Source: Octopus vulgaris
Lineage: Eukaryota
Assembly (NCBI GenBank): GCA_951406725.2
Contig: OX597820.1
Coordinates: 37,014,001-37,078,000, forward strand
Direction: 5' to 3'
Length of the DNA stretch: 64,000 nt
Shown: positions 1,571-47,111 of the stretch, piece after piece
Layout: each line of letters opens with the position of its first letter
How positions within the stretch are numbered: the stretch's first letter is position 1
The notes under the pieces: generated by a model
What the model saw: the letters and a program-made list of their open reading frames with translations, nothing else
Databases searched by the model: none
Told to the model about the DNA's origin: nothing
Translations under genes and position numbers: made by a program

Positions 1571-2845
1571 ATGGAGGAGAGACTGTCTGAGAATCAGGTT
1601 TCTAACGAAACACAATGTGAGAATAATGAGTTTAATCACCAAACTGAAGAAGATGTAGGGAAGAAATCATACCACTGTGACATCAAAGGAAAGACATTCA
1701 TGAAAAGTAAGGACTGCAATGAAGACAAACCATTTCAAGCAGGTTCAAATGTTTACTGTTCTAAAATATGTGGTAAAGGATTTATCAGAAGTTGTTCTGT
1801 ATCTCCACATCAATGTATTGAGACATGTGAGAAACAATATCACTGTGATATGTGTGGTGAAGCATTTTCTTGGAATGAAGATGAACATTCAGCTAGTCAT
1901 GTATGCACTCACACAGGGGAAAAATCATACTGTTGTGAATTCTGTGGCAAAACATTTGCGTACATCGGAATTGCAAATACCCACAAACGTACACACACAG
2001 GTGAGAAACCATTCCGCTGTGATATCTGTGGGAAAGTATTCTCTCGTAAGGGTATCTTAACTGTTCACAAGCGTACACACACTGGTGAGAAACCATACCA
2101 CTGTGATATCTGTGGCAAAACATTCTCTCGTAATAGCCAAGTGATTGTTCATAAACGTAGTCATACAGGTGAGAAACCATACCAATGTGATATCTGTGGT
2201 AACAAATTTTCTATGCATGTACATTTAGTTAATCATAAGCGTACTCACACAGGAGAAAAACCCTTCCACTGTGATATCTGCGGTAAAACATTCTCTCGTA
2301 ATGCTGAATTAACTATTCATAAACGTAGTCATACAGGTGAGAAACCATACCAATGTGATATCTGTGGGAAAACATTTCCTCGTAAAAATACCTTGACTAT
2401 TCACAAACGTACACACACAGGGGAGAAACCATACCACTGTGATATCTGTAGTAAAACATTTTCTTGTAATAGTGACTTGACTGTTCACAAACGTATTCAC
2501 ACAGGTGAGAAACCATACCATTGTGATATCTGTGGTACAACATTCTCTCGTAATGATAAATTAACTATTCACAAACGTAGCCATACTGGTGAGAAACCAT
2601 TCTCCTGTGATATCTGTGGTAAAACATTCTCTCAGAAGCCTAGTTTAACTTCTCATATACTTACTCACACAGGTGAGAAACAGTACCCTTGTGATATCTG
2701 TAGTAAAAGTTTTTCTACAAATTCTAATTTAACTATTCACAAACGTATTCATACAGGTGAGAAACCATATAATTGTGATATTTGTGGTAAAAAGTTTTCT
2801 CGTAATTTTCATTTGACTAGACACATAAGCATTCACACAATTTAA
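1571..2845 (+). CDS. C2H2 poly-zinc-finger protein, 424 aa (ZNF-A); 11 canonical fingers, 1 atypical, 2 degenerate N-terminal fingers
   Basis: Repeated CxxC-x12-HxxxH with TGEKP linkers, uninterrupted ORF, short acidic N-terminus MEERLSEN. No KRAB, SCAN or BTB domain recognisable. Confidence 0.95.
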   Translation: MEERLSENQVSNETQCENNEFNHQTEEDVGKKSYHCDIKGKTFMKSKDCNEDKPFQAGSNVYCSKICGKGFIRSCSVSPHQCIETCEKQYHCDMCGEAFSWNEDEHSASHVCTHTGEKSYCCEFCGKTFAYIGIANTHKRTHTGEKPFRCDICGKVFSRKGILTVHKRTHTGEKPYHCDICGKTFSRNSQVIVHKRSHTGEKPYQCDICGNKFSMHVHLVNHKRTHTGEKPFHCDICGKTFSRNAELTIHKRSHTGEKPYQCDICGKTFPRKNTLTIHKRTHTGEKPYHCDICSKTFSCNSDLTVHKRIHTGEKPYHCDICGTTFSRNDKLTIHKRSHTGEKPFSCDICGKTFSQKPSLTSHILTHTGEKQYPCDICSKSFSTNSNLTIHKRIHTGEKPYNCDICGKKFSRNFHLTRHISIHTI

Positions 2846-3066
2846 AAACTATAATACTGTAAAATCTGATAATTCAGTTTCTAATTATGGTAAATTGACT
2901 GTTCATATACCTACCTACACAAGTAAGAAACCTTCGTTTTTTACCTGTGAGTTGCTTGGTGAAAACATTCTCTTGATTGTTCATATATAACTTGAGAATT
3001 GATACCACAGGGAATTCTGTGGTCAAACAGTCTCTCAAAATGTTAATTTGACTTATAGACATATTT

Positions 3067-3422
3067 ACATCATCCACATCATCATTGTTATTGTTTCAAT
3101 GCCAGATTTACCATGCTTTCATGGGTCATATCGAATTCATTGATCAGATTTTCTATGGCTGGATGCTCTTCTTGTCACTAACCCTCATCATGGCTGGACA
3201 TGTTTTCATGAAAGACACCACTTGTATGATGGTAGTGCTTGTTTGTAATTGACACCAAATTTCCAGAAAGGGAGAGACACACACATATGCATATGTAAAT
3301 ATATAATAATCTTCCAGTTTCTAACTACCAAATCCACTCATAAGGCTTTGGTAGGCTTGGAGTTATAGTAGAAAATACCTGCTCAATGTGTCACAGTGGG
3401 ATTGAACCCAAAACCACTGTGT
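3067..3422 (-). mobile_element. SINE copy in ZNF-A 3' region
   Basis: Same family motifs (TACCAAATCCACTCA.AAGGCTTTGGT; GGGATTGAACCC). Absent at the equivalent position of the paralogue. Confidence 0.65.
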
Positions 3423-3752
3423 AATAAATCAAACCATTGAGTAAGCATTTCCCTGATATCTATGGTTAAGTTATTTGAAAGATTAGGTTGATTAATCACA
3501 AATTAATCTACTCAGGTGAAAAAGCAATCCACCATGAATTCTATGGGCATACATTGCCTCAGAATGCTCATTCAGCACATGATATATTCATGTATATAAT
3601 AACCAAACCAATGTGAGATTTGAGGGAAAACATTATCTCAGTACTAATTTAATTAGTCACAAATATACTTAAAACTCATGAAAGATATTATCACAAAATT
3701 ATATCAAACCACAGAAAAGTAGTTGGGGAGATGTACTTCAGTAGAATATTTG

Positions 3753-4152
3753 TCATCATCATCATCATTTAATGTCCATTTTCCCATGCTTCCATGGGTC
3801 AAATAGAACTTGTCGAGGCAGATGCCCTTCCTGTTGCCAACCCTCACCTGTTTCCAAGCAAGGTAATAATTTCCCTGTAGCCAGACATATTTTCAAGGAA
3901 GACTGGAAATGAAGGACACCGTTTGTATGCTGGTGACATTTGTTTACAACCATTGTGATAACCAAACAAATGAATACTAACACACACACACATACACATT
4001 TATGATAGGCTTTCAGTTTCTATGCACCAAATACACTCACATGGCTTTGGTTGGCCCAGGGCTCTAGAAGAAGAGACACTTGCCCATGGTGCCATGCAGT
4101 GGGACTGAACCCAAAACCATATAATTAGAAAGTAAATTAAATTACATAGCTC
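3753..4152 (-). mobile_element. SINE copy in ZNF-A 3' region
   Basis: (CAT)n tail, GGATGCCCTTCCTGTTGCCAACC-like segment, GGGACTGAACCC B-box-like segment. Confidence 0.65.
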
Positions 4153-4871
4153 CCACCCTCTGGGAAAATGGGTAATATGAGAATTTATTCATTTTGATTG
4201 TGAAATACTATATCATTTCAGAAATTTTTGTCGTATTTGAATTTTATTGAAAAATTACTAATACACAACTGTCATGTTTAGCATCAATTATTCTTATAAG
4301 TTTGTCGTACAACTCATCTCTGTGGGTGAGAACCTTTTTGAAAATATCCACACATTGACCTTTTCTTCTAATTAAAATATACTTTTTATATTTTTCAAGT
4401 GATTAAATTTTAACTTTTATGAAAGACAGTAATTTCAATTTAATTATTTAAACCTTGTCTCAGAATCTGAATTTTATACACACACACACAGAGTTTTAAA
4501 ATTAGCATTAAAAATATTTGGCTGATATGTTTCCTAATTATTTATTTGAGAATGATTTGATTACAAACTCACAATCATCAGTTTTGTTGCTACGAGCATT
4601 TAAAAATTCATATTAAGTGTACTTTTTACTGTGATGTAATAACACCGGAATTATGTTTGGTGGGTGCTTATGTTAATAGCTGCCATTTATTCTATATTAG
4701 ACTTTGCCAAAATATATTATCCTCTATTTAAGACACATACAAAAACAGTAGAAAAATAATGAGTTGCAGTTAACTTGTCAAAGGCAGAGGTCAAGAAGCT
4801 AATTTTACCTCAGTTATAAAAACTCTGAGAACTTCTGTAATTTCTGTTTATATATATCAAAAAAGGATCAA

Positions 4872-5056
4872 AGGCTCTTCATGAGCCATAAGCTCATAAG
4901 GCTAGTTTCCCAGATTCTATTGCGTATACATTCCCCACTGGACGGACACCATTGCAGGATTTCTCATTTTAACAGTCGAGTGCACTAGCACAATATGAAA
5001 TGTGTTTTGCTGAAGATTCTAATGCATTGCCCACTCCAGCAATTGAAACCACTATA
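4872..5056 (-). mobile_element. Second SINE family, degenerate
   Basis: Reverse strand reads GGTTTCAATT..GGGCAATGCATT..AGCAAAACACATTTCA..CCTGCAATGGTGTCCGTCCAGTGGGG, resembling tRNA-head plus conserved-core SINEs. Confidence 0.45.
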
Positions 5057-5486
5057 AGTTTTCTTAGATACCAATTCAATTAATAAACATTAAAAGCTGA
5101 TTGAGCAACTATTTTTAAACTAACAGTGTATAGTTGGATGAAATGGTGATTGTAATGGAACAAAATATAGGTGGGCAGGGCAGTAAGGAATATTTACTGC
5201 ATTTTTGACTTTAAGAAAAAAAATTTTTTACAAATGGCAGAGTTTCTACAGCTGGATGCCCTTCCTAACGCCAACCACTCCGAGAGTGTAGTGGGCGCTT
5301 TTTATGTGCCACTGGCACAGGGGCCAGCCAGGTGGTACTGGCAACAATCTCACTCGAATAAATATATAAATTCTTTTAAAACTGTCTTGCAGTTATATTT
5401 CCAACATGGTTTATTTGAGAATATTTAAAATATCTTATGTGGTTGCATATGCTTATCAGTATCTTACTGCTGTGAACAGCTGACAA

Positions 5487-7021
5487 CACTGGGGAACATG
5501 GTTTTTGTTGTCTGATGTTAGAGACATATTCCCTAGTAATTTTTGGGTGGTGATTTCAAAAAGGAAATCCATTTTGCTCTATCATATCAAGATTTTTCAT
5601 AAACTCAGAAGTCCATTCTTCAACATTTCCAATAATGTTACAATTTCTAAGGATATTTGGCTTCATCAAATGCCAACCCATGAAATATCCTGAAATGACT
5701 TTGAAAACAGTTTTTCAATGTCATTTTAAATAAATGCAACTACGAAAGTGAAAAAAGTTATGATTTAATATCTTCAGTAATTATGATCCATTACATTATA
5801 CGTCTCATACTTGTGGAATCTGCTGTATGTCAGTAGATATGTCCATGCTGTGCTTGATTTCATGTGACTCATTGCAAAACAGGTGAGATGTGTTTTGTTG
5901 GACCTTTAATTATTTATGAAACTTGGTACTATGAATGCTCTCTTAATGTTGTAATTGTTAAGTCACATAGGTCAAGGTCACTTTTTGTCAAGCATGGTCT
6001 AAGAACTGTAGAAAAAACTTCATGCTATGTATACTCGTCATGGAACTTTGCCATCACAAATCTGCATTTGCTTACTTTATAATTGCTGACAATTCTGAGA
6101 ATATTTTCTCGTGTAACAACTGGCTTGAATATATGTTTCATATTTCAGAAATATGACCAGTTGTGAGAGAGAAAAAATGCAAAACAGCCCAGATGTCTTA
6201 CCTTACTTTTACATGAAACTGGGTGATCAAGATAAAGCCTGGGCATCCTATATAGTGTGTAAAACATGTAACACTGAGACTGCATAAGCAAAGAATTTCT
6301 GGCCTTGTCTTGTGAGAAAATTAAGGTTGGTGTTTGATGGGCCACAGATTAGGTGACTATTGCAAGACAAGCAGTATTTAGAGACCATGTCTGGCATTTA
6401 AAAAGCATGGAATGCTTTTGCTGCATTTGTGTCTGATTTCGTGAGAAACAGACAGTCATAAAATTATGAAGAATTTGTGCAGACCCTATTAACCAGTTTT
6501 TAAGCACTGGACTGCAACACGAAAGTAAATGTGCATTTCCTGCAGTTGTCTGATCTACTTCCTTGAAAATCTGAGTGCTATGAGTGATGAGCAAGGAGAA
6601 TGATCTCATCAAGACCATAGAGACTAGGTATCAAGGCAGGTGGAACATAAACATGATGGCTGACTATTGCTGGGGTCTACAGAGACTGTCATGATGCAAG
6701 TTATTCACACAAAGCAGCAATGAAAAAGTTCACTTCATGAGTAGCTTAAACTTCAATTTGCCAGAAATATTTATCCTAAAATGTGTAATATATTTGTTAA
6801 ACAATAAAAAGTAGTTTGATTTGTGTCAGTTTCTTATTTCAGTATTGCATTTAATGGTAAAATTTACATTTTTTGGAAAAAAAAAAAAGAATTTTTGTTT
6901 TACAAGAAACCTTGAAGTGACTGGACATTTCTGGAGGCATTTCTGAACTCAGCACCATCATATTAGCTAGTTGTAAAAAGCAAGTCAACTAAAAATTTTT
7001 TTTCGAATATGTTCCTCAGTA
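5487..7021 (+). mobile_element. Chapaev3-like (CMC) DNA transposon, internally deleted and degenerate
   Basis: Short TIRs CACTGGGGAACAT (5487) and ATGTTCCTCAGTA (7009-7021). Frameshifted transposase C-terminal motif SDEQGE..HQD...RYQGRWN.NMMADYCW at ~6582-6673, and LGDQDKAWAS-like N-terminal motif at ~6219-6250. Confidence 0.7.
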
Positions 7022-7199
7022 TAATTCATCTAAAATGATGGAATTATTGCAAAATATGTCTCCTGTAATTTCTCTCTCAATATGCTCCTAGATATTTGAG
7101 ACCACTTAAAGAAGCATTCTCTGTAATAAGTGAGGTGAATACAGTTAATATTCCCTTTGAACTGTAGTGAATTAATATTTGAATAGTGTTATTAGGAAT

Positions 7200-7610
7200 A
7201 AAGACATCAAAAGGACATGCTCATGTAAATACCCCAGACAACTTCTACTGTGTCTGCACACAATATACACCTATACTATAGCAAAGGAATGTAGCCACAG
7301 CATCAAGGATAAAACTTGTCTACAAGTACTATTTTGGTTGTAAAGAGGAACATACGAGTAACTGGACATTACATATTTGCTGTGCACTGTTTAATACAAT
7401 GTTAACAGATTGATTGAATTGGGAAAGAAAAGTTATGCCATTTGCATTCCCATGATTTGGTGTGAACCCACAAATTACATGATGATTGTTATTTTTGATT
7501 GATAAGTAGCTAATTTCACGAAGAAAAATAATTCAAAGATCAACTACTCATACTGCTGATTAGCCTTAAAGTCTATACTACATGATGAAGCAAACCCATT
7601 ACCAGTTCCC
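7200..7610 (+). mobile_element. Second Chapaev3-like transposase 5' fragment
   Basis: Frameshifted translation CVNTPDNF..VC..YKYYFGCK..W..HICC..MPFA.PMIW.EPTN..DDCYF, characteristic of the Chapaev3 N-terminus. Confidence 0.65.
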
Positions 7611-8649
7611 TAAAGAACAATTTTGAAGATTTAGCAGTGGTATGGAAGCAGAGAAAGGTAGCTTGCATGTTCCAGATGCAGATAGTTCTTCACATTTGCT
7701 AGTTCAAGCATAGTTTGTGGTTGAGCCTGTGGCAGTGGATACCTCCAGTGTTCTTCGCTCTTGGATCTCATCCCTGCTCTCTACTATTAGTATGGTTATG
7801 GTTATCCACAAGTTTGAGCCCCATGATTCAGAGTGGTTGTAATGTGTCACACAGAAGTTTGAAAAAAAAAAAAAGAAGACCCGTCAAATCAAGAACTAAC
7901 AAACGTCTCCCCTGGGATGACCATGAGAAAGCATCTCCAAACTAACAAGCACAATACTAATGAGAATCTTCAATACTTTTAGCCTATGCTGCTAACATTA
8001 TTTACATATCTAACCCTTGCTAACAATAAAAGTAGCATACTTTGCTTAGGCATTAGAAACCATGAAAGAAAAGAAACAAGGAGTTACAGAAAATCTGCAA
8101 CTAAGAGATAAATTTGGTTGTAAGATCTGAATTGAGCATAGCTGATTTAATTAGAAACAGTGGTCCACTTGTGTGTAGCAGAAAAAGTCATTTGCTGCAT
8201 AGCAAATTCGGTGTTAAAATTTTTTAGTTAACTGTAGAATTATGTCCCCTGACAATTTGTTAAATCCCTATTCCGTTCAATTGCTGCAGTTGTTTGGTTT
8301 AAATTGATATTCCTTTGTCAGTTTTAGTCTAAAACTGCTACATAGTTGGATCAAACTAAATATAGTTGATTGGTATTTAACCGAGTATGGTTTCTTTATT
8401 ACGTTGAGCCAAAAATGGAAATCAAGTTTTGTTGTAGAATCCTGAAGCTGTTATTGTTCACAAGCACTTAGGTTGTTAATGCTTAAGCAAATTTAACATC
8501 TTCCATATTAAGTCTATATTAACATTTATACCCAGCAATATTGTATACATGTCATTTTTCATGCATCTTTTTGTTTTGATATTGCTTATAATTGAAATAA
8601 AAGAAAGAAGCTGAAAGAACATAACATGAATTTTACGAAACTAATTGTT

Positions 8650-9085
8650 ATGACATCTCACGAGATTCTCGTGTTGGACCAAGGTTGCCGTTATCTTCTC
8701 CTACTTTATTAATTCTGCACTTCATAACAAAACATGAAAGTTCATAGAAAATTAAAAAGAGAAAAAAAATTGCAGTGAATTGATTTTGTGGTGAGGTATG
8801 AAATGTCTAATGTCTCGAACATTCGTATAGAAAGAATATAGAGGCTAATACCACGATCGCAGGCTGACAAGGCAAACTGCTACGCTTAGGAATTTTATGG
8901 ATTAACTTTTGCCAACACAGACCACTACCACCAACAACACCATTCCCTTGGATTTAAGATCTTAGCTTCTCATAAAATATGGCGGACATTGGGGAATTGA
9001 ACCCCTACTCTCTGACAAAACTTATAGCTTCTCGTTAAAGTGAGAGCGTTTCATTATTTTTGTGAGATAATACATTTTTCTTGGT
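8650..9085 (+). promoter_or_regulatory. Candidate promoter / first exon upstream of the TIGD-like ORF
   Basis: Local CpG retention; TCTCACGAGA and palindrome CACGAGATTCTCGTG (8656-8673); YY1-like AAAATATGGCGG (8974-8985); weak donor G|GTAAAA at 9084 and acceptor TTTTTCAG at 9271-9278. Direction is inferred. Confidence 0.35.
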
Positions 9086-9139
9086 AAAATGAAAAATTAG
9101 TATTGACTTGCTTTCTGCATATATATGTATATATATATA

Positions 9140-9200
9140 GAGAGAGAGAGTCGCTTATTATAATCACGGATTATGTTATCAAAGGTTATTGTCATCAAAA
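9140..9200 (+). mobile_element. Degenerate 5' terminal repeat of a pogo/Tigger element
   Basis: GAGTCGCTTATTATAATCACGGATTATGTTATCAAAGGTTATTGTCATCAAA has the short-period internal repetition typical of pogo-like ends. It follows a TA/GA run. No matching 3' TIR found downstream. Confidence 0.45.
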
Positions 9201-9393
9201 TGAAACTTTTCTAAATACTTTATTTAATGTAAAGAGTTATTCACTTACTGCTCTAGAGATTGTTATCAAATTTTTCAGTTAAGCTGTTTTCGTTGACATT
9301 TGTCAGAGACCAAACAAAGTTGTGATATTGATATTTATTTATATTGTTTCCTAATTAAATAAAGTGAGCATAGGCGACTATTAAAACTTCATC

Positions 9394-10932
9394 ATGATGA
9401 AAGAGGTAAATAAGAAACGTAAAGATTTGTCTTTACAAGAAAAACTAAACATATTGGGGTGTTATGATAAGTTACCGAAAATGAGCCAGCGCAGTGCTGC
9501 TGTTTACTTAAATATTTCTCAACCACTATTGTGTAAGATTTTAAAAAACAGATCTAGTATTGAGAAATTAGCACTTTCTAATGAGAACATAGATCGTAAG
9601 AGAGTACGGTCTGGCAAAGATAGTCAAATTGAGTCAGCATTGAAAATTTGGTTTGGCAATGTTCGTGAAAAGAATACAACAATTAATGGCCCGCTGATGC
9701 GCCAAAAAGCAGAAGAGTTTGCAAAAGAAATGGGTAAAACAAATTTCACACCAACTGAAGGTTGGTTTAACAGATGGAAAAGACGAGAGAATATTGTATA
9801 CAAACGTGTTCATGGCGAGGGGAAAAGGGCTAACGTTTCATCAGCTGAAATGTGGATTAAGACAGAATGGCCAAAAATTATTGCTGAATATTCTCCGGAA
9901 GATATTTACAATGCAGACGAAACAGGGATTTATTTTCGAGCAATGCCGGAACATACTTATTCGTTAAAAAATGAAAATGCCAAAGGATTTAAATGTTCAA
10001 AAGAGCAAGTGACAGTTCTATGTTGCGCTAATATGAAAGGGCAGAAACGAGAGCTTGTGGTTATTGGAAAAAGTAAAAATCCTGTGTGTTTTAAAGGTGT
10101 CAAAAGTTTACCTGTTCGTTACTGTTCAAATGCTAATGCTTGGATGACTACAGATATTTTTAACAACTGGTTACTTATGTGGGATTTGGAATTAAAGCGA
10201 AAAATTGTATTGTTAGTTGACAATTGTTTGGCACATAGAAATAATTTGTCATTAAAGAACATCAAATTAATTTTACTACCTTCAGATACAACATCATTAA
10301 TTCAGCCATGTGACCAAGGCATCACACGGGCTTTAAAAGCTTATTATCGTAGAGAAATTTGTACAAGAATTTTACCTGAAATTGATGATAGTCAAAGTCA
10401 GTCGGATGTAAATGCAATCGCAAAACAGATTTCCCTTCTTGATGTATTGCATATGCTAGCAATGTCATGGGACCAAGTATCAGTGAAGACTATTGAAAAC
10501 TGTTTCAAAAAAAGTGGATTTTGTAAAACAAACACAGAAACCCTTGTTAACAATGAATTAGAACTTATTACAAACGAAATTCTTGACAGAAACCCAGATG
10601 AAATGCAAAAAGAAGAGTTTGACTATTGGTTGGCTATCGATGACAAAGTGGAAGTGGAGGCTACAATGACAGTGTCAGAAATATGCCAGGCTGTTACTGA
10701 TACAGATTCTAAATTAGAAGAGAATGAGCTGAATCCTGAAGAAGAAATTCCAGAAGTTCCAACCAATGCTCAGATGCGAGAAGCTCTAAAAATACTTCGT
10801 CGTGGTGTGCAACATCGATCAGTAGAATTTCAAAAGCAGTATGAGTATGAGCGGTTTGTTAATGAACTACTAAATGTAAACAGTATGCACAATCAACAAT
10901 GGGTAAGTTATTTTTCTTCTTTAAATAAATAA
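9394..10932 (+). CDS. Tigger/pogo transposase-derived protein (TIGD4/TIGD6-like; HTH + CENP-B-type HTH + DDE_1), 512 aa
   Basis: Uninterrupted ORF with KRKDLSLQEK HTH, GPLMRQKA..EGWFNRWKRR, and catalytic motifs IYNADETG, LLVDN and IQPCDQGI (DD30D spacing). Confidence 0.92.
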   Translation: MMKEVNKKRKDLSLQEKLNILGCYDKLPKMSQRSAAVYLNISQPLLCKILKNRSSIEKLALSNENIDRKRVRSGKDSQIESALKIWFGNVREKNTTINGPLMRQKAEEFAKEMGKTNFTPTEGWFNRWKRRENIVYKRVHGEGKRANVSSAEMWIKTEWPKIIAEYSPEDIYNADETGIYFRAMPEHTYSLKNENAKGFKCSKEQVTVLCCANMKGQKRELVVIGKSKNPVCFKGVKSLPVRYCSNANAWMTTDIFNNWLLMWDLELKRKIVLLVDNCLAHRNNLSLKNIKLILLPSDTTSLIQPCDQGITRALKAYYRREICTRILPEIDDSQSQSDVNAIAKQISLLDVLHMLAMSWDQVSVKTIENCFKKSGFCKTNTETLVNNELELITNEILDRNPDEMQKEEFDYWLAIDDKVEVEATMTVSEICQAVTDTDSKLEENELNPEEEIPEVPTNAQMREALKILRRGVQHRSVEFQKQYEYERFVNELLNVNSMHNQQWVSYFSSLNK

Positions 10933-10942
10933 TTGTTAATAA

Positions 10943-12128
10943 GAGGTGGGTGTGTGGTTAAGAAGTTTGCTTCCCATCTATATGGTTTCAAGTTCCACCC
11001 CACTACATGACATCTTGGGCAAATGTCTTCTGCTATAGCCTTGTGAGTAAATATGGTAGATAAAAACTGAAAGAAGTCCATCATTTATACACACACATAC
11101 ATATGTCCATGTGTATGAGTCTCCTCTTCACATCACATGCTAGTTATAAATGAGTGTTACTCATTTACTGTGAAAACATTCTTTTTTCAGTCATTTGACT
11201 GTGGCCATGCTGGAGCACCACCTTTGGTCAAACAAATGAACCCCCCAGGACTTATTCTTTGTAAGCCTAGTACTTATTCTATTGGTCTCTTTTGTGAAAC
11301 CACTAAGTTACAGGGACATAAACACACCAACATTGGTTGTCAAGCGATGGTGGGGGTGACAAATACAGACAGACAAACATATACATCAGGCTGTTGCTGA
11401 TGCAGATTCTAAATTAGAAGAGAATGAACTGAAGATATTCCAACCAATGCTCAGGTGCCAAATCCACTCACAAGGCTTTGGTTGGGCTGAGGCTGTAGTA
11501 GAAGACATTTGCCCAAGGTGCCACACAGTAAGACTGAACCTGGAACCATGTGGTTGAAAAGCAAGCTTCTTACCATACAGCCACGCCTGTGCTTATTTAC
11601 CATGTGGAAATATCTTGCTTGGAAACAAGTGAGGATTGGTAACAGGAAGGGTATTCAACTGTAGAAAATCTGCTTCCACAAACACTGTCCAACCCATGCA
11701 AGCATGGAAGAGTGAATGTTTAAACAATGATGTCAGTTTCTAATTCATTTAAATAATAATTTGAAGTTAATTAATTTCATATCCTGGCATAGCTGTGTGG
11801 TAAGAAGCTTGCTTCCCATTCACATGGTTCCAAGTTCAGTCCCATTGTGGTACCAATCTTCTATAGCCTCGGGTCAACCAAAGCCTTGTGAGTGGATTAT
11901 GTATATATGTATGTATATTTGTGTTTTTGTTTTTGTGTTTGTTTTTCCACCATCGCTTGACAACCGATTTCAGTGTGTTTACGTCCCAATAACTGAGTGG
12001 TTTGGCAAATAGACTGATGGAATAAGTACTAGGCTTACAAAGAATAACTCCTAGGGTTGATTTCTTTCACTAAAACCCTTTAAGGCAGTGCTCCAGCATG
12101 GTCACACTCAAATGACCAAAGCAAGTCA
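10943..12128. mobile_element. Cluster of SINE copies in alternating orientation (+ ~10943-11160, - ~11180-11592, + ~11783-12128)
   Basis: Family head TGTGTGGT(T)AAGAAG.TTGCTTCCC on + at 10951 and 11794; reverse-complement head at 11555-11592. Confidence 0.7.
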
Positions 12129-12429
12129 TTATATATATATATATATATACACACATTATGTGTGCAGCTCAGTGGAAATAGGTAGTGTACTTTATTCACT
12201 GATCTTGTTGGTTCAAGTCTTGTGTGTGCTTTTCACCTTACCATTGCCACCATAACAACTGCCACTGATCATTACCAATGCTACTTAGAACTAGCATTAC
12301 TAGTTCCAGTACTACTATCACTGTTAATTATGTGTTGCCAGGACCAATACAGATGATGGCAAGATTAAAGCTGCAGGTATATTAGCTACAGAGAGTTTCT
12401 AGTTGTATGGTGTTGGTGGTGTATAGCAG

Positions 12430-13140
12430 TTGTGATGATGGTGCAGTGTAAAAGCATGTTGGTGTTTGGAATGGAGATAAGTTGGTCCATGTGGCTGGGT
12501 ATACATATATACGACAATGATCTCATTGTTGCTGCTAGGGACTTCAATGACAACCTCATGGCATCTTTCAAAATATACATAAAACTTTGGATATGGTACA
12601 AGGGATCAAGGCTTCGTGAGTTTTGAGATGCAAATGACCTAACCATTTACAACATAAACTTCTGGAAACCTACCAATCCAATGAACACAAAACCCAGATA
12701 GACTTCATTCTCACCAGTAAATGGAATAAACAGATGGCTGTGAATTCTAAGCTTCTCTTGGTTGAGAATGTTACTCTCAGCAGAGGTTAGTGATTTTTGA
12801 TTTTAAAGTAAGAGCTAGATGGAATCAGAAATTCGAGTCAGCTTGGTAAAAAAAGATATAAAAGCTCAAAGAGCCATCAAATAATCAGCAGTTTAGAGAA
12901 GTACTCTTCAAATTATTTGACAAGTGGGAAGAGGAGATAGAGATCTATAACATAGAAAAAAAACAACTTAGAGTTTCTATGTGACATTCTGCTGAAAACC
13001 ACAAACTAGTTATGTGGCCAATAAAAGTTGGAATGTGTTGAAAATAGGGCTATAAATGATAAGATACAGGCTGGATTGACTGGAAGAAAATAGATAACGT
13101 AGAAAAATATAATATAGTTAGAAGAGACACTAGATATCCA
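12430..13140 (+). mobile_element. Old LINE (RTE-like) AP-endonuclease fragment
   Basis: Degenerate DLIVA.DFN, GYG, RL.EF.DANDL and TQIDFIL motifs with stops and frameshifts. Confidence 0.6.
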
Positions 13141-13998
13141 ATTTGTCCTTTCCCACCACCCAGGAAATTCTCATTACTTTTATCCTCTACTGTAGAGACT
13201 GAGTTTTGTGATGTTTGCCCAAAACATGGTGTCAGAAAGGGATGAATATCTCATGCATATATAGATAAGTTGTCAGGATAGGAGATTAACAGTAACTTTA
13301 TAGCAAGCTGTCAAAGACACCACATCAAAGTATGAGAATCTTGTTGTACTTTGATGTCATAACATCATTTTTACTTTAAATTAAGATAGTGGCTTTTATA
13401 AATCTTTACAAAAAGTAATGCCTAAGTTTTGTTATAAACACAGAGTCTTGTATTTCTATTGAACTTATCTATGCAATGCAAATTATCGTGAAATTCTTGT
13501 AATTCTTTGTGTTCTGTCATAACAGTGTTGATAGATTACGAAAAAGTTCACATATATATATATCTAATAAACATAAGGTAGTGCTCTAGCATGACCACAG
13601 TCAAATGACTGAAACAAGTGAAAGAGTAAAAGAATACATTTAGCCTTACTGTGAAAATAGACCCTTATGGTTTGCTGTCTTGACAAAAGTTGTCAGTGAG
13701 AGAGAAAGTAAGCAACTTACAATTACTTTCAGAAACTGCATTGTGTAACATGTACCAATTTACATTCACTGGCAGTGTATATTAAATAAAGTATCGACAC
13801 AGCTTGTTTGAGGGTAAACTGAATGAATTCAAATACACACATTTAATCAACATAGCTATGTGTTTAAATGACGAATCTCCCTCCAAGATGAGCCTAAGAA
13901 TAAATTGACTTTGATTCTTAAGTACAGTTCCATACATACTTCAACTTTGTATACTGTTAGCAGCTATTTATTGTGCTGTACAATATGTTAAAAGCTTT

Positions 13999-14220
13999 AG
14001 GACGGCAAGCTAGCAGAATTGTTAGCATGCCGGGCGAAATGCTTAGCAGTATTTTGTCTGCCATTACACTCTGAGTTCAAACCGCTGAGGTTGACTTTGT
14101 TTTTCATCCTTTTGGGGTCAATTAAATAAGTACCAGTTATGCACTGAGGTCAATATAATTGACTTAATCTCTTTGTTTGTCCCCTCTATGTTTAGCCCCC
14201 TGTGGGCAATAAAGAAATAA
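13999..14220 (+). mobile_element. tRNA-derived SINE with conserved core (TTTCATCCTTTTGGGGTC..TAAGTACCAG)
   Basis: Head GGACGGCAAGCTAGCAGAA, B-box-like GAGTTCAAACC, core resembling Meta/Nin-type SINE domains, A-rich tail. Confidence 0.65.
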
Positions 14221-14721
14221 ATATATTAAAAGCTTCATCATGTTTGAATGAAGTCCTCCTCTTCATACCTACACCCAGTCACATTTGGGAAAAATGTAGT
14301 GTCTCGTTGGTAGCAGGTAAAATATTTTAGACTGGACAACAGCAGTAGCTGTTTGCACAGATCTTCAGATACTTCAAGTTAGCTGACTGGTTGATAAAAA
14401 ATGTGACCTGCATAATTATCAAACCTTGATAACATATTGTTATTGATTACATGAAGGCTTCACTTACTGTCTGAAGTGAGTTGGGACAAACCTCTCATCC
14501 TAACTCACTTGCTACATCTGGCTGTCTTCCTTTTCTCTATCATGCTCAAACTTTCAAGCTTTTTCTGTCTTAAATCTTATGATTATTTTTCACATGGTCA
14601 TACAAAGTGTCTTTTCTCTAGAGACTTTTTCTGTCACTTTTCAATGTCTTCAGTAAAATCTATTCTGTTATATCTTTGTATTGAAATGTGTTTCATTGTT
14701 TTTACTTTCTCTTAATTTTAG

Positions 14722-16800
14722 TGTGTCTGGTATTACTGAGGTGATCATTTCTCACACAAGTCACATCAACAGATCCATGAAGAATCCAAAAAATTGAAGA
14801 ACTGGTTTAATAAAGAAGACATCACAGTGGTTATCTAAGTTAATGAAAGTAATTTGAAATAATCTCCTGAGTGATATTGCAATGGAAACACTTGAGAAAG
14901 CCATTATTATATAATGTGTTACATATCTGGATATATTTTGAGAAATGGAGCAAATGCAGTTATGTTAAAGTTGATTAGCTTTAATTACAAAATTAAAATC
15001 TGAGGGAATAAATTTATCCCTTAATATATTTGAAAAGATTTATTTATACTTAAGACATAACTACAAATATTTTCAAATATTCATTATTTGAAGAGAAAAT
15101 AGACTATTATAATCTGTAAGTTTTGATCTCATGATCTTGTGCTCAATAGTCTAGCACATTAATCACAGTGTCATTTGCCTTATAAAACATTATATTTGTG
15201 TTCTATGAACAACAAATCACATTATGGAGGAGAGGCTGCATGAGAATCAGTTTTATAAGGAAATACAATGGGGAAATAATGAAATTTCCTTACCAAACTG
15301 AGGAAGATGAAAAGAAGAAATTATATGTCTGTGATATCAAGGGAAAGACATTTAGAAAATGTAAGGACATCAGTGAACACAAATCACTTCACACAAGTTC
15401 AAATATTTACTTTTGTAAAGTTTGCTGTAAAGATTTCATTATAAATGGTTCTTTGTCAGTGCACAAATGTACTTACATAAGTAAGAAACCACACCATTCT
15501 ATTAACTGCAGTAAGACATACTCTTGGAGTGATTATTTGACAAGTCACAAACATATTCACACAGGTAAGAAAGCATAATGTTGTATTTGTGGTTAAACAT
15601 TTTCTTATCGAAAATCAACTCCTCACAATATTTACTCAAGTGAGAAAACTTGTCTGTGCTACGTGGTAAAACATTCTTTCTTAATAGTGAATGTTCATAG
15701 GTGTCATACAGATGAAAAATTATACCACTGTTTCTTATTTAAAAAAAACTCTGGTTAAGATCACTTGACAAGTCACAACATACACGTACAGGTGAGAAAC
15801 AATATCACTGATATCTGTGGTATAAAATTCTCTCAATAATACCTGACTGATTGCAAATGTACTCGTGCAAGGGAGAAACCATACTACTGTGATGTCTATT
15901 ATGAAATATTCATTTATAGCAGTGAACTGATTATTCACAAACATAATCACACAGCTGAGAAACCATATCACTATGATATATGTGGAAAAAATATTCCTTC
16001 AGAAATCTTAACTCCCCATATAAATATTGATATAGACAAGAAAATGTAACTTTGTGATATCTTTTGGTTATAGATATTCTGGTCCTCATACATGCGAGAA
16101 ACCTTACCACTGTGATATCTATAGAGAAAAGTTTTAGACATATCTGTAGTCTCACTCATTTATGTCAGGAACTGAACCATTGTGATGTCCATGGTAAAAC
16201 ATTCTCTTATATTAGGAATATAAACTAGTCACAAACAAATCCCCTCAGATAAGAAACCAAAACCTTGAATTCTGTTGTCAAACATTCTTTAAGAATGCTT
16301 ACCCAACTCATAGACATATTCATACATTAAATAAACCAAACCATTGTGCTGTCTGTTATTAAACATTATCTCAAAATACTGATTTAATTGGTCACAATTT
16401 ACTCAAGAAACTGAAAACTGTTATTACAATAATATATCAAGCTACAGTAGGATGGTCATGATGAAAGTTCACTGGAGCTTCTGGTTTACTTCAGGAAATG
16501 GATGAATGTTGTATTTATAGAGTTTCATTGTGAAATATTACCATTTTGTTTCAGAATTGTTTCCCATATTTATGATTTTTTATATAAAAATTTTAATTTA
16601 CACCTTTAATATTTTGCATCCATCATTCTCTGCAATAGTCCTTATTGCATGAGACATTTGTAGTTCAAAAATTTTGGAAATATCCATATACAGATTACAA
16701 ACTTTTTTTTTTTACTATTGTAATATTTACATTTTCCCAATGGTTTAAATTTTTATGGAAGTCAGAAGCTACAATTCATTTTTACAACTTTCATTTCAGA
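14722..16800 (+). pseudogene. Decayed paralogue of ZNF-A (ATG at 15224; frameshifts and stops)
   Basis: Acceptor AG at 14720-14721 with leader homologous to 1101-1570. Reads MEERLHENQ, then frameshifts into QTEEDEKKKLYVCDIKGKTF, sharing the unusual CDIKGKTF with ZNF-A. Stop at 15576-15578, eroded fingers to ~16400, and 3' flank homologous to ~3600-3715 and ~4180-4466. Confidence 0.88.
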
Positions 16801-16858
<58 letters not shown>

Positions 16859-17029
16859 TCCCTCATATTATTATTATATATATATAAAACTTACTTGGAA
16901 AAGGATGCGTGGCATTCGATCATAATAATATAAATATATGCACATACCTACATATATATATATATATATAAAGTAATAAACTGAGGAAAAGAAATCCTTC
17001 AAAGGGGTGTGTTAAACATCCAATTCACT

Positions 17030-18530
17030 GGTACTTCAGTTGGATACCATATAAATATTGGTATAATTCAAAAATAAAGATAAATTAAGTATTGAGATAT
17101 TCTTTTCACATTCAACAGACAAAAGCGAAATCCCACAAAAATTACCACACAGATCCTTTGGCCCTGATTTATACAATGAGACTAAAATGTCAGTCTGCAC
17201 TTTCCTTTTCAGCTTTCTGTAAGCTTTATTTGAGTTGGGGTTCAAGGACTGAAAAAGAAGTGTATTGACTTAGTTTTTTTTTTTCTAAAAGTAGATCATG
17301 AATTTCTGCTGATCTATCTGAGAACCAGTCACTGGACTTATGTGATTTAAATCCCACACAAGAACTAGCAGCCTGAAATACTTTTGTTTTGAAATCTTCC
17401 CATAGATTGCTTGGGTCAAGATTACTACTTTCTATAGCATCTTGGAGTCTTCGCAAATTGCTTGATAATTTAAAGTTTGCAACATTTAACTTCTTGGGTA
17501 CCTTAGAACCAGACTGTGAATTTTTAGGCATTATCGAAAAATCTATTTTTCCACGCACTAGGTGATGGTGAGTCCAACTCTCTGCTCCTCTCTTGGCCCA
17601 AACATTAGAAACGTCTTTCATATCATGTTTTCTGATCAGAATATAATCTATGAGATGCCAGTGCTTAGGTCTTGGGTGCATCCAGGTGGTTTTATATTAT
17701 TCTCAGTACAAAACGTCAAAAGAGCTACTCCATTTTTATAACATTTTCCAATCCCATGTCAACCTAAAACAGAGCAAACCCAACACCAGATTCTCTACGT
17801 TGACCCTTAGGTAGGCCTCTCCAAAAGATAGTACATCCATAAGTAGGTTCATTTACTTGAACCTTACCAGAGAGACGAGTTTCAGAGAATGCAATTATAT
17901 CAAAGGAATATTTCTTAAGCTCACATGCAATATGTGCAGTATATCTTTCTGGCCTCATGTTGAAATTATCATCAAGAAGTGTGTGCACATTCCAACAGCC
18001 AAAATTCAAAGGATGTTTATTTTCACTTTTCCTTGAAGATTGTTGCACCACAGTGGCAGGATGACGACCAGGCCCAGCCTGTGATACACTGGAACACCTG
18101 TCAAGCCAGACCTGTTCCCCTGATGTTCCCAAGCCTTTTTCCCCATTTACTGAATCTGTTTGAGACATTTTAGAGTAAGTTACAAGTGCATTTTTAAGTT
18201 TCTACCAACCAACCAATTCGATGATTTTACATAAGATTTGGTGTACAGGAAGTACCTGTGCAGATGAATAATTTTCAGTGAGTGTAGCTTGCACTGCACT
18301 ACCCCCACCTATTGGTCCAAGAAGACTTTCACCAGTGTGACATGAAAATTGACAAAACGAGGAACTTCCAAGGCCTCAGGTTTTATTTCGGAGATTTCCT
18401 TCTAGGTATTTTACCAACCAAGGTTAAATAGCTTCTACCTGCCCATATGGTAAGCTATCCCATTCCAGACACCAAACCAACACTCACTCTATAAAGTGAT
18501 CAAATATCACTCTGGTGACTGACGCGGAGT
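17030..18530 (-). mobile_element. RTE (BovB-like) LINE 5' part: 5'UTR, endonuclease, fragment of the RT region
   Basis: LNFGCWNVHTLLD..RPER..IIAFSETRL..ESGVGFA; HPRPKHWHLIDYILIR; GISLLS. Interrupted by stops and deletions. Confidence 0.85.
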
Positions 18531-18735
18531 AATTCATTCATACATTAAAAAAAAAAAAAGTATGATGTGTGATTTGCAAATATAAATAGGAATTAAATAT
18601 AAATCTAAAAAAGTAAAAGATGCGCAATTTAAAAATATAAAGTAAGATTTAAATACAAATAATATGTATATAAAAGTAAAAATATACACATATGCCTATT
18701 AGAATTTTAAAAATACAATATGTGAATATATATAT

Positions 18736-19282
18736 CAGGTCATCCCGTAAGTTCTGTCTGAATTTTTTAATAAAGAAAACAAGTGATTGAATATTATATT
18801 TAATCATCAATGTACTTTCCCTGATTATCTATGACTTCCTTCCATTGATGGGATTAAAAAGCTTGTAGCTTTCTAATCCCATGAATGTAAAATACTTTTG
18901 GTTTCAAAGTGAAGAACTCTGTAATGTCAGTTTCGACCTATCCTGGTTTACGAAACAATCTTCTGCAAGTTCTTTCATTCAAGCATTCTTTCCCATAAAC
19001 TGAGTGTATGTTTCAAGTTGCTTCAGCTGCAAAGTTTCCTTTTTTGTACTCATAAAGCATTATGTGCCTCAAATGCTCTTTGGATACTTCCATGTTAGAA
19101 AGGGTTTTAATCTAAAAAATTTTAATTCTATTATTCTGTAAAATAATATTTAATTAGTTTAAATGTACACAAATGCATAAAAATAATTTTAAATTCCATT
19201 AGACATTAGACATTCTAAAATACTATTAAATTCTATTCAATTTTAAAAAAGGTAAAATCAGACAGAACTTATGGGATGACTG
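18736..19282 (-). mobile_element. Mariner deletion derivative (~545 bp)
   Basis: TIRs GGTCATCCCGTAAGTTCTGTCTGA and TCAGACAGAACTTATGGGATGAC. Minus-strand remnant EFFTLKPKVFYIHGIRKL..QWKEVIDNQGKYID is a mariner C-terminus. Confidence 0.8.
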
Positions 19283-20381
19283 TCCTTGCACAGAGGCTAT
19301 CCGACTCCCGTTTGTGCCGTGAACAGGGATTAATCTCTCTTTGCTCCTTTGTGCCACATAGGCTCAACTCTCCTCTCTCTCCCGCCCACCTCTTCTCCTT
19401 TCCCCTTCATCGTCACCCCTCTCTCATAAGCCCACCTCACCCCTACACATTCCACCCCCACTCATCGATTTTTTTTTTTTCGTTTTTGGAGAACTTATGG
19501 CATTCAAAGGTCCCATGAGTCCTAAGTGATGCTGGCATCAAGGTTGAACAAAATACATCAAAATTGTTAAAAGTTATGGTTGAAAATGTAGCCAGTTTTA
19601 TTTAAAAATCCTATAAGGAATCGGTTTATCGATTGATTTTTTTTTTATCCTGATTAAATGGAAAACCCCATAAGGAATCAGTTTATTGATTTTTCACCCG
19701 ACTTAACCGAACACAATATTGCTGATTCAAAACATCTGGTTTTCACACCCAACCCAGTTCTGCAGAATCAGTATCACAATGGGAGCACATGGGTTGGGAG
19801 TTTGATCAGGCTGAACATACCAGCCCTTTGAAAACCCCACCCCCATCATCTAACCCCACTTTGCCCATGGGTTTGGAACCCTTCCAGCAAGGAAAATAGA
19901 ATGCCAAAAGGGCTTCCGATTCTGTCAGAAGCAGTTATGTTTAGATCACAACTAAGTCTTAAGTATATATATATATATATAGGCAACACACACATGTACA
20001 TACATACACCTATTGCATACATGTTTGTGTGTGTGTTGCCCATATATCAATAAAACACTTTTTTTCCTCAATGGAGAAAAAAAATAAAAGAAGTCGTAAG
20101 AAAAACCTACTCATCACTAGAAAGGGACTTAACTCCTGATTATAAACAATGTTGATTTCTCCGACTTGAAAATTGTTAAAAGTTTTGGTTGAAAATTTAT
20201 TTTTACTGCTATTTGCTGGTGCCTCTGGGAAAAATAAATTAAGGAAAATACAGCTAGGGTCGTGATGGATGTCCTAAAATTGGAGCGACATGTGTGCTAA
20301 TTTGTGGACATGCATAAATTACATTCATGTACACATACACATCCTTCTTTTTATATATATAGATGTGTATATCCTATACAA

Positions 20382-22330
20382 ATGGATTTGAAATGCTATG
20401 ACCTGGGATATTCAGCAAAGAATATCCTTACACCACCAAATGAGCTCTACGCAAAGCTACTGCTGGAGAAAATTATTGATTTGATCAAGCAGATGAGATG
20501 GAAGGCTTTTTAGTTTAACCAACCCAAACCACCAATGGAAGCCAAATAGTGTGGGCTTAAATCCAGGAAGTTCCCACTGAAGATCAGGGAACTAGAAGCC
20601 TTTGAGAATAACCTGCAGAATATAATACTCTGCCTGAAACTCCATAAGTCCTCAAACCCTTTCCAAGATAAACTTTGAGTAGACACCTGCATGCTTAAAT
20701 CTTCTGATAGGACTATTCTCTTCTCCGACAAAATAAAAAATCTCTATAGGATAGTTAGTGACACACATACACAGCTCTTTAATAACAGCATCACACAAAC
20801 ATACAGGAGAGTCAACCCCCACACATATGCATCTAACCCCAAGTGCAAGCTGATAAACCCAGTGAAGTCTGAGATCAGCCAGGTGAGCAAGCAGCTTATC
20901 AGGAAGATCTGTAATAGCATCAGAAATGCCTCTGATCTCACCCTATAGTGCAATTCTAATGAGATCATTACCTGGTTTAAGGACAGCAGCAGCAAGGGTA
21001 GAGCTATGTTTACCCAATTTGATATAGTGGACTTCTACCCATCTATATCAAGGAAGCTCCTATCAAAGACACTCAACTTCACCAGAACCTTTACTGAGAT
21101 CAACAACAAGGATACGCACATTATCATGCACGCCAGGAGAACTATTCTCTTTAGTAAAGGGTCCACTTGGACCAAACACACTGGCCCAGAGGTCTCCTTT
21201 GATGTGGCAATGGGTGCTTTTGATAGTGCAGACGTGTGTGACCTTGTTGGTTTATTTATCCTGGACATACTTAAAAAGAAATTCCCCTCTACTAGCTTTG
21301 GCCTATATAGTGATGATGCACGGGCATTTTCAAGATGTTCTAATGGCCTTACACTAGATAGGCTCTGAAAGGATCTCACAGCCACCATGAACTCCCTCAG
21401 ACAGAAGGTCATTATAAGAGACCGACCTGAAAATGATTGATTTCCTTGACATGATTCTGATTGAACCTAGATTCAAGTGCCTATAGGTCTTTTAGAAAAC
21501 CAAACGAGAAGTTATCTTATATTAACACAGGTTCCTACAATACTGCCTTAGTTTTGAAGAACCTGGTTAAGAGTGTCTGCAGGAAAATCTCCAACTTGTC
21601 TTCAAGCAAGAGACCTTTGATGCTGCCTCCCAACCGGGCTCTGGCTGCCAGCAGTTTCAAGGATAGGATTAGTTACATGCCAGACCCTAGCCCCACCAAG
21701 AGAAAACACCACAGGAAAGTATTGTGGTTCATGCAGCTTTTCTCTTTAAATGTTAGGACCAGAGTAGGTAAGATCTTTCGTAGCTTAATTAACAGACTCT
21801 TGGTTTGGACCAATAGATTCTATAAAATATTTAATAGGCATAGCTTGAGATTATCCTTTAGCTGTGCTCCTAGTGTAAAAAAGGTTCTAGTAGGTAGACC
21901 CAGACCCAAGACTGAGGCTAGATGCTCATGTAGGGGTAACACTAAACGGGCAATGCAATATGAAAACAGTTGTCTACAAGGTAGCAGGACCCAGTGAACA
22001 ACAGAGCATGCGGAAGTATGTGGGGGCAACAGAAGCCCCCTTCAGAACCCACTTTAACAACCACAAGTTCTCTTTTAACATTCCAGAGATGGAATGCCAC
22101 AATCCTAGCCAAGCACATCTGGGTTTTAAAAGAAAGCACCACACAGAATACAGCATCAAGTGGAAGATCTTAGAAAGATGCAAGCCATACTTCAATATTA
22201 GCAGCAAGTGTAGATTGTGTCTGGCCAAGAAGAGGGTAATCTTAAAAAGGCACCCAACACCCAGATATTTACCTCAATAGCAAGAGTGAGGTGTTTAATC
22301 CTTGTCCACATGAAAGAAAATACATTCTGT
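20382..22330 (+). mobile_element. Near full-length degenerate Penelope-like element (Naiad-type RT + C-terminal GIY-YIG)
   Basis: YSAKNILTP..IKQMRWKAF; PKCKLINPVKSEI; FDIVDFYPSI; GLYSDDA; VVYKV..YVGATE..NHKFSF..KCRLCL. Multiple stops and frameshifts. The clade call is from motif memory. Confidence 0.85.
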
Positions 22331-22870
22331 CATATCTGCATGACCCACCATGACTGTAATCACGGGTCCCCTGCCTCATCCTCCCACCAAGGCCCTTGGG
22401 GCTGTCATAAAGAGATTGACCAAGGCATACACCAAAACACCCATGTTCACAAATACACACCCATAAGACAGACATCCCGTAGATAACCACCCCCAGCACA
22501 TACCCCTTCATACAAATTCTACTCCCACATAAACAAACCAACACACAGTACTCTTACACATTATACATTACACACCGTATGCCCTACACTTTACGCATCA
22601 CATTATACATTTCACACCATGCAGTTATATATAAAAAAAAAACACAACTTTATCCTTTAGACGCACCCCACCTCCGCAGAGAAACCACACAATTTTAATG
22701 CAACCTTTCCCCATTTCCTTTTGCCAACTCAACAGCAAACATAACCAAAGGATATAACTCATAATAGACTCCACTGGAACTTTTTTCAGCCTACCACCTT
22801 TACACAGCAGACGCCGACCGGTCGTGCTCATTTCCACCTCCAGCAGTGGAGAGCGGTCGCTATTTCCCAT

Positions 22871-22966
22871 TCCATGTTGGCTATCTCTGACGAGAACTGG
22901 TTTGTTGCCTAACACTCCATTATATAATTTCACGTGAAATCGATTGGTAAGACCAGCCGTGATGGA
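22871..22966 (+). ncRNA. Type I hammerhead ribozyme motif (degenerate) downstream of the PLE
   Basis: CTGACGA (22887-22893) .. GAAA (22936-22939) TCGATTGG TA. Flanking stem I TCCATGTTGGCTATCT / AGACCAGCCGTGATGGA. Confidence 0.55.
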
Positions 22967-23014
22967 TAATTAACACTATAAAATTCAGACACTATATATA
23001 TATATATAAAAATG

Positions 23015-23388
23015 CACAGGAGTGGCTATATCATAAGAAGCTTGCTTCCCAACTACATGGTTGCTGGATCAATCCCACTTGGACAAGTGCCTTCTACTAT
23101 AGCCTTTGGCCGACCAAAGCCTTTTGAGTTGATTTGGTAAAGAAGCTCGTCGTGAATCAACCTCAGCACACATAGACACACATATGTGTCTGTGCTTGTC
23201 TCCCATCACCGCTTGACAACCGGTGTTGGTGTGTTTCTGTCCTCGTATAATAGCGGTTCGACAAAGAGTTCAGTTAAATAAGTACCAGACTTTAAAAAAG
23301 AAGTACCGGGTTTGATTCATTCAACTAAGAATTCTCCAATGTGGTGCCCTTGCATAGCCGCTGTCTAATGACTGAAACAAATAAAATG
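23015..23388 (+). mobile_element. SINE, near full length
   Basis: Family head AAGAAGCTTGCTTCCCAAC, core GCTTGACAACCGGTGTTGGTGTGTTT, tail ATGACTGAAACAAATAAAA. Confidence 0.7.
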
Positions 23389-23429
23389 ATATATGGAGAG
23401 ATAGGGGTAGGGTGCAAACAGCTGTATTA

Positions 23430-47073: not shown

Positions 47074-47110
<37 letters not shown>
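46700..47110. repeat. Higher-order minisatellite: (CA)n-TATATGCACAT(C/A)TATAGA units
   Basis: About 10 units of ~32-40 bp with variable CA run length. Confidence 0.9.
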
Positions 47111-47111
47111 C

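Follow-up and report, generated by a model that had tools for sequence, protein, structure and literature searches.

A pogo-type transposase gene of Octopus spliced to the dead terminal exon of a duplicated zinc-finger gene

Introduction

Genes in which a transposase is joined to host exons, such as KRABINER/ZNF112, SETMAR and PGBD3-CSB (10.1101/2020.05.07.082677), are among the closest described systems to the locus reported here, namely a gene for a pogo-type transposase that is spliced to the dead terminal exon of a C2H2 zinc-finger (ZNF) gene in a 64,000-nucleotide (nt) stretch of the Octopus vulgaris genome (assembly GCA_951406725.2, contig OX597820.1, positions 37,014,001-37,078,000; hereafter the window, in whose own numbering all coordinates are given). 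In the portions of Cosby et al. that bear on these fusions (10.1101/2020.05.07.082677), they resemble the Octopus gene in that an element in or beside a host gene supplies a splice site with 0-1 changes from the consensus, in that a small frameshift is involved, and in that the new transcript displaces the parental one. In eight of their nine cases, however, the transposase carries an upstream host domain, often KRAB, joined to it through an acceptor that precedes it, whereas in the Octopus gene the donor comes from the 3' end of the element, the host contribution is five codons from a former 5' untranslated region (UTR), and the host frame is dead.

ZBED6, which lies in intron 1 of ZC3H11A, is likewise a complete transposase within the first intron of a zinc-finger gene, and the host promoter drives it by transcripts that read into this intron; as described in the relevant section of its source (PMC5834713), nonetheless, ZBED6 derives from a hAT element and has no introns, and its host gene remains functional, whereas the Octopus locus has a host pseudo-exon and a transposase with a spliced 3' end. 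According to the corresponding sections of PMC7386202, the pogoR genes TIGD3, TIGD4, TIGD6 and CENPB encode, as the Octopus gene does, immobile proteins of ~510 residues with HTH_Tnp_Tc5 and DDE_1 domains; TIGD6 (DD30N) also has the 30-residue spacing, and pogoR genes show a ratio of nonsynonymous to synonymous divergence (dN/dS) near 0.1-0.2. The Octopus gene differs from them in its independent origin, its invertebrate host, its full DD30D triad, the terminal inverted repeat (TIR) remnant in its messenger RNA (mRNA), and its ZNF-derived terminal exon.

The same gene is already annotated, with the splice from 10902 to 14722, in O. bimaculoides (LOC106881326/XP_014787158.1), O. sinensis (XP_029638673.1) and O. 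vulgaris (CAI9725523.1). LOC106881326 has been listed as a CENPB-type transposon-derived transcription factor, and pogo domestication in Octopus has been reported (PMC10027918); the portion of that paper on LOC106881326 is silent on the ZNF origin of exon 2, the origin of the donor, and selection. No description of the locus structure was found in the literature covered, which included few subscription papers, and the fusion-gene table of Cosby et al., outside this coverage, may hold similar cases. The gene, its splice, and capture through transposon splice sites are known, and what is new here is that the host coding role is wholly gone.

Results

The transposase frame is spliced to a former ZNF exon

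The open reading frame (ORF) of the transposase spans 9394-10932 on the forward strand, which also carries the other parts of the gene and the two ZNF segments described below. As a first-pass annotation of this DNA had claimed, a donor TGG/GTAAGT (10900-10908, cut at 10902/10903) follows codon 503 directly in phase 0, and an acceptor TTTTAG precedes 14722; GGTAAGT occurs twice on the forward strand of the window. The in-silico join reproduces the predicted product HNQQW-CVWYY-stop. As assembled contigs, four of 24 listed sequencing runs (X1, X9, X13 and X15) were compared with positions 1001-21000; X1, X9 and X13 were classed as RNA-type by guess, which the GT-AG join and a near-empty intron fit, and the splice evidence consists of aligned contig pieces, the joint listing being crowded by repeats. 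The splice, which the annotation had set as its check against RNA, was found in single contigs of ~3.66 kb from two studies with different organism labels: 9157-10901 is joined to 14721-16597 in X1 (record 7) and to 14721-16603 in X13 (record 13). Because a G stands on both flanks, the cut at 10901/14721 is the same junction as 10902/14722. In X9, record 28 has 230 extra letters past 10901 and its depth of 21.1 recurs at 14845, from which it probably holds the same join.

The intron (10903-14721, 3819 nt) is full of short repeats, and its last 230 nt are homologous to the intron of the parent ZNF gene. The bin 12340-13006 is covered at depth 12.4 in X15 but at 0, 1.6 and 0.9 in the three runs of RNA type, and X9 has a single low-depth contig inside the intron (12238-12598). 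Exon 2 (14722-16604) comprises the codons CVWYY, a TGA stop (14737-14739) and then 3' UTR, so that the conversion of the former ZNF exon into 3' UTR, as had been predicted, is borne out by RNA contigs to ~16600. The RNA-type contigs end at 16597, 16603 and 16604, a weak hint of a 3' end near 16597-16604, and X15 extends to 16793. Rfam gave no match in 8000-17500.

CAI9725523.1 is identical (100%) to the ORF from 9394 over codons 1-503, and HNQQWCVWYY is the C-terminus of the annotated O. sinensis, O. vulgaris and O. bimaculoides proteins, each of 508 residues, which make up three of the five members of their cluster. The fourth member, P0123 (CAI9725522.1), is an alternative O. vulgaris model with an 8-nt exon (14722-14729), a decayed but in-frame finger piece (15919-16043) and a distal exon (23566-23652), a structure without RNA support among the contig pieces listed; the fifth, P0001, reads through the donor. 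In the main form, the host part of the protein is only CVWYY from the former UTR, with no host domain fused in frame. We regard it as nearly certain that the transposase exon is spliced to a dead ZNF terminal exon and is domesticated.

The terminal exon is a decayed copy of a nearby ZNF gene

As had been claimed, the dead ZNF copy is a paralogue of the intact one in the window (ORF 1571-2845): 14489-16805 matches 892-4469, with identities of 71% at the intron end and 79% in the former 5' UTR, and it retains the acceptor equivalent to the parental 1100/1101 together with ~230 nt of intron. Its finger frame (15222-16450), now 3' UTR, has five stops in 245 aligned codons, and 12 of its 16 indels shift the frame relative to the intact copy. 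While the finger repeats make the alignment uncertain, nonsynonymous divergence (dN) is 0.31 and synonymous divergence (dS) is 0.71; these values fit neutral decay over the greater part of the period after the duplication, with insertion and death in either order. The old frame begins 500 nt past the acceptor and therefore could never be fused in frame without further splicing.

No orthologue of the intact or the dead ZNF was hit among sets of 1 and 37 candidates, and a full protein scan gave, among the 150 listed, only generic multi-finger proteins of at most 46% identity. In the DNA preceding the ZNFs at 27519 and 43269, no homologue of the acceptor was found; one AT-rich match pairs 14988-15084 with 26345-26435. 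A GTAAGT is also shared by the two ZNF copies at equivalent points of their 5' UTR parts (1429 and 15116), where the transposase transcript leaves it unused, and the 3' region of the intact ZNF (3493-3714) contains further decayed finger sequence matching 16226-16447.

The ORF derives from an immobilised pogo element

By its domains, the ORF is assigned to the pogo superfamily: Pfam identifies HTH_Tnp_Tc5 (residues 77-137, E 4e-14) and DDE_1 (203-371, E 6e-42), and the catalytic triad D175, D276 and D307 (DD30D) is intact. For pogo transposases, the relevant part of PMC7386202 gives DDxD triad spacings of 29-59 and an optional CENP-B_N domain. The latter gave no Pfam hit at E 0.001, and the helical N-terminus of a structure model (mean predicted local distance difference test score 70) matches CENP-B(1-129) (E 8e-3), which together with Mos1 transposase complexes (E 1e-4) is the best Foldseek match. 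TIGD4/6-like hit names and the triad spacing would place the protein in the pogoR/Tigger type.

Eight of the 80 loci retained from metagenome contigs are copies of a single family with 75-79% DNA identity to the ORF, and four of these (L022, L035, L074 and L002) include the left end. They align to 9142-9272, a left terminal and subterminal repeat remnant of 70% identity, beside a (TA)n microsatellite (9119-9139, unstranded) that forms the left boundary of the element and is likely its TA target site. A deletion of ~700 bp (roughly 680-720) from the 5' region of the element follows this remnant; in 10903-24000, no right TIR or right end matched above shuffles. Because of this deletion and with no detectable right end, the element is not excisable as a unit; where an intact mobile element would have two TIRs and a TA, only the left remnant is present. 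The rule of Gao et al., as given in part of PMC7386202, calls for no TIR on either side, and here a left remnant of 70% identity is still present. In X15, a single long contig of depth 6.9 spans the ORF, against 6.5-10 for unique flanks, hinting at a low copy number. A short copy of ORF positions 10687-10775 with an internal deletion lies in the intron among short repeats (11387-11455, forward strand).

Near the 3' end of the ORF (~10883-10884), the window carries two bases that L016 and L035 lack. In the stretch 10883-10928, the old C-terminus, now out of frame, reads QSTMGKLFFFFK-stop, against QATLHKFLK-stop in L016, a box of the PCNA-interacting peptide (PIP) type. The donor GT falls on the fifth codon of this former PIP box, and its TAAGT aligns to element DNA, with the preceding GG differing from related copies; because it is located in the old PIP box codons and aligned to element copies, the donor is of transposon origin. 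The read-through tail QQWVSYF was also considered as an in-frame ancestral PIP box and was ruled out, as the DNA alignment puts the old box in another frame.

Transcription starts in host DNA, and the TIR remnant stays in the mRNA

Promoter-like host DNA lies at 8656-8988, where two motifs, each the sole match to its pattern in the window, had been noticed: TCTCACGAGA (palindrome-like, 8656-8665), which we take to be BANP/ZBTB33-like, and AAATATGGCGGAC (8975-8988), presumably YY1-like. The ratio of observed to expected (o/e) CpG around them is 0.77-0.99, and 0.77-0.83 for 8656-8988, against 0.35 across the window, and the DNA upstream of the element (8200-9139) appears single-copy (X15 contig 7851-8825). 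Exon 1 is placed at 8664-10902 by the RNA contigs, with an uncertain 5' end; an O. bimaculoides complementary DNA (cDNA) starts at the equivalent of 8222, and the start site would be somewhere from about 8222 to 8990, the contigs showing neither strand nor start. A start of transcription upstream of the left end of the element, in non-element DNA, is supported.

The first-pass annotation had further proposed a small intron (9084-9278) that would remove the TIR remnant. The remnant is real, as the related copies show, but it is not spliced out: in all three RNA-type runs, contigs cross both 9083/9084 (from 8668, 8664 and 8689 to 9112) and 9278/9279 (starting at 9157, 9172 and 9157), interrupted only at the microsatellite (9113-9156), and the O. 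bimaculoides cDNA of 4583 nt compares with 4564 expected with the small intron kept and 4369 with it removed. The intron is hence ruled out for the main transcript; a minor form spliced there may exist, since contigs drop rare forms. Depth on the two sides of the microsatellite is 17.8/17.7 in X1, 15.1/21.1 in X9, and lower upstream in X13 (7.0/14.7). With the small intron retained, exon 1 measures at least 2.2 kb and bears the TIR remnant and 11 upstream ATGs. The donor at 9083/9084 (TTG/GTAAAA, 9081-9089), a weak one that the main transcript reads through, is a candidate for the original donor of the host first exon.

The transposase frame appears to be under selection in Octopus

The O. bimaculoides and O. 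vulgaris proteins differ at 6 of 503 residues without an indel, after a split dated to 34 million years (My) ago in the relevant part of 10.1101/2023.05.16.540928. The first 394 nt of the O. bimaculoides cDNA, which are 5' non-coding, show 22 substitutions and three indels by eye against 8222-8617; at this rate, ~60 residue changes, 4-5 stops and 11 indels would be expected over the ORF, and the dN/dS computed from this 394-nt neutral rate is roughly 0.10 (range 0.06-0.17). The ORF thus appears to be a conserved open frame under purifying selection in three Octopus species, and the claim that the transposase stayed open while the ZNF decayed agrees with 503 open codons beside five stops and 12 frameshifts. 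The orthologue P0001 is 94-95% identical with an open frame and keeps the donor-spelling codons W-V-S. X1 and X9 have one synonymous change in exon 1. Non-synonymous differences at 10018, 10705 and 10765 are seen in X13 and X15, two of which match the O. sinensis protein.

In a quick tree of 39 rows, taken without curated reference pogoR elements, four Octopus-type proteins form a clade (support 100) that is sister to P0002/P0125 (98); the multi-copy family adjoins this group, and scorpion proteins fall outside. P0002, P0125 and P0126 form a 499-residue sister group, 67-69% identical, on contigs of 3.3-3.7 kb, without two of the triad aspartates and without a PIP box; they may represent a deeper orthologue, or the family may have been domesticated twice. 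Identity to the Octopus protein is 59-61% for named scorpion proteins and 39-45% for the best named molluscan ones, and dS between the Octopus ORF and the multi-copy family is 0.7; because of this higher scorpion identity and this dS, horizontal acquisition of the pogo element is suggested by the sequence comparison. Three Centruroides proteins (P0007, P0012 and P0017), TIGD4-like and in the same transposase clade, have lost triad and PIP residues, and parallel domestication with horizontal spread of the family is possible.

Other features of the window

The window consists of AT-rich animal DNA and contains further intact C2H2 zinc-finger ORFs at 27519-28721 and 42040-43269. Further CpG-rich stretches (o/e up to 1.37) lie at 24400-25200, 41300-42000 and 62900-63900 and are candidate promoters of other zinc-finger genes. 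Broken frames at 17226-18201, 20949-22280, 33222-34809, 47000-48010, 53047-53693 and 56050-56889 are presumably long interspersed nuclear element (LINE)-like (reverse transcriptase, endonuclease) and mariner-like.

Discussion

We consider it likely that this gene is an immobilised pogo gene, starting in host DNA and spliced to a dead ZNF exon, which arose behind the first exon of a ZNF duplicate, took over its promoter, and serves as a DNA-binding regulator. The ZNF segment was duplicated in tandem, as its match to 892-4469 shows, and the element would then have entered intron 1 of the duplicate, its left end being aligned to the (TA)n tract 55 nt past the weak donor. Having lost ~700 bp on the 5' side, and with no right end detectable, it is immobile, and its transcription comes from the host DNA ahead of it. 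The alignment also shows that two inserted bases shifted the PIP box into another frame and that its codons now contain a GT donor, these changes having arisen in either order. With the weak donor read through and the new splice used in the main transcript, the host exon supplies the acceptor, five codons, the stop, the 3' UTR and the 3' end; the ZNF frame, behind 503 transposase codons and a stop, would go untranslated and hence decay. In the last step, the two N-terminal helix-turn-helix units would bind the subterminal repeat motif of the family.

Several observations weigh against this scheme. The dN and dS of the dead ZNF are also compatible with a copy that died upon duplication or shortly afterwards, whether or not the element had inserted. 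The neutral rate comes from a single, hand-counted region of 394 nt. The O. sinensis protein P0121 carries five residue changes after ~2.5 My, including F181V and K226E at near-invariant positions as well as V222A, and all three differences in the X13 exon 1 contig (L209I, D438Y and N458D) are non-synonymous; selection in the O. sinensis branch may thus be weaker. An AATAAA at 10924 and the read-through tail of P0001 leave room for an unspliced short form, and the 5' UTR contains the 11 upstream ATGs (8665-9393). Moreover, 8200-9139 has no homologue elsewhere in the window, so that nothing links the promoter to the ZNF gene, and the parental splice from 9083 to 14722 was absent among the joints listed, beyond which there are 1187 more.

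Some of these points would suit an order of events in which only the ZNF terminal exon with its nearby intron was duplicated, dead on arrival, and a transposase gene that already ran on an unrelated or new CpG promoter later captured it, without any takeover of a gene; we hold this for a tentative alternative, clearly behind the scheme above. Indeed, firm homology to the parent begins only at 14489/892, a further match (40-114 vs 11706-11777) is borderline and overlaps a repeat, the ZNF decay is compatible with early death, and domesticated genes often recruit nearby CpG promoters, as part of PMC3369469 describes. Compared with other CpG-rich stretches and with upstream parts of the window, the promoter showed no homology above shuffles, apart from one TA-repeat match; this absence is no test of inheritance, because the first exon and promoter of the parent ZNF lie outside the window. 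The promoter-like stretch, the weak donor 55 nt before the insertion and the ZNF acceptor, all on the same strand, have the layout of a two-exon gene, and we put inheritance of the duplicate's own promoter at slightly better than even. That the locus is instead a transposon which broke recently or is still selfish, its transcripts being due to read-through and its splicing accidental, without a host role, is largely refuted and very improbable. The non-synonymous differences in X13, the five O. sinensis changes and the long 5' UTR with its ATGs speak for it; the right end is absent, nevertheless, the left end has decayed to 70% identity, dS from the relatives is 0.7, and the frame has stayed open with six changes and no indel over 34 My.

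For the function of the protein, family resemblance makes a DNA-binding regulator of the CENP-B/TIGD type the more plausible main role. To judge from CENP-B, TIGD and JRK, it would bind DNA sequence-specifically through its N-terminal helix-turn-helix units. Three copies of the subterminal repeat motif survive in the gene's own 5' UTR; this motif is a candidate binding site, and autoregulation is possible. The retained DD30D triad may be structural or still catalytic, and it is conceivable, albeit rather unlikely, that the protein is kept for its DD30D chemistry or for PCNA binding, with the tail QQWCVWYY as a rebuilt PIP-like box. The triad aspartates are all kept in all four Octopus-clade proteins, whereas the sister pair P0002/P0125 has lost two. 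The tail has Q at position 1, aromatics at 7 and 8 and then a stop, in the register of the lost box; of 485 local AG sites, no more than 7 would put two aromatics at these places, where the parent ZNF has two stop codons, and P0001 keeps Q-Q-W although the three preceding residues changed. On the other side, the pattern was spotted post hoc. It misses the consensus Qxx[ILM]xxF[FY] given in part of PMC5371812, with C at 4 and Y at 7, so that the spacing alone is kept. A strict PIP-type box occurs in 48 of the 126 proteins compared. Of 120 relatives, 63 show the spacing within their last 16 residues, none of them with a C at position 4 or a YY at 7-8; other isolated relatives (P0002, P0007, P0009, P0012 and P0017) have simply lost the box. 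To our knowledge, the triads of JRK, JRKL and POGZ have no known need, and yet they are conserved. In mammals, all three proteins keep them, according to part of PMC7386202. A rebuilt PIP box is accordingly doubtful on sequence grounds, and we give little credence to its fullest version, in which a horizontally acquired pogo element would have replaced the ZNF outright, lost its PIP box through a frameshift and a new donor, and rebuilt a working PCNA motif (Q..C..YY) from five codons in what was once the 5' UTR of the dead gene. If this were true, octopuses would have a domesticated transposase that is catalytically intact and tethered to the replication fork.

The surprise is limited in that the gene and its splice stand in annotations and the general mechanism is published. 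The locus adds a dated, selected invertebrate case to a mostly vertebrate literature, and it makes available for testing one defined protein, one candidate DNA motif and the five-residue tail. It traces, furthermore, base by base, how a new gene can arise when a duplicate ZNF contributes nothing but a shell for a transposase, namely the acceptor, the stop, the 3' end and, probably, the promoter. Large tandem zinc-finger clusters such as those of octopuses would then be nurseries for transposon domestication, besides being sources of new finger proteins.

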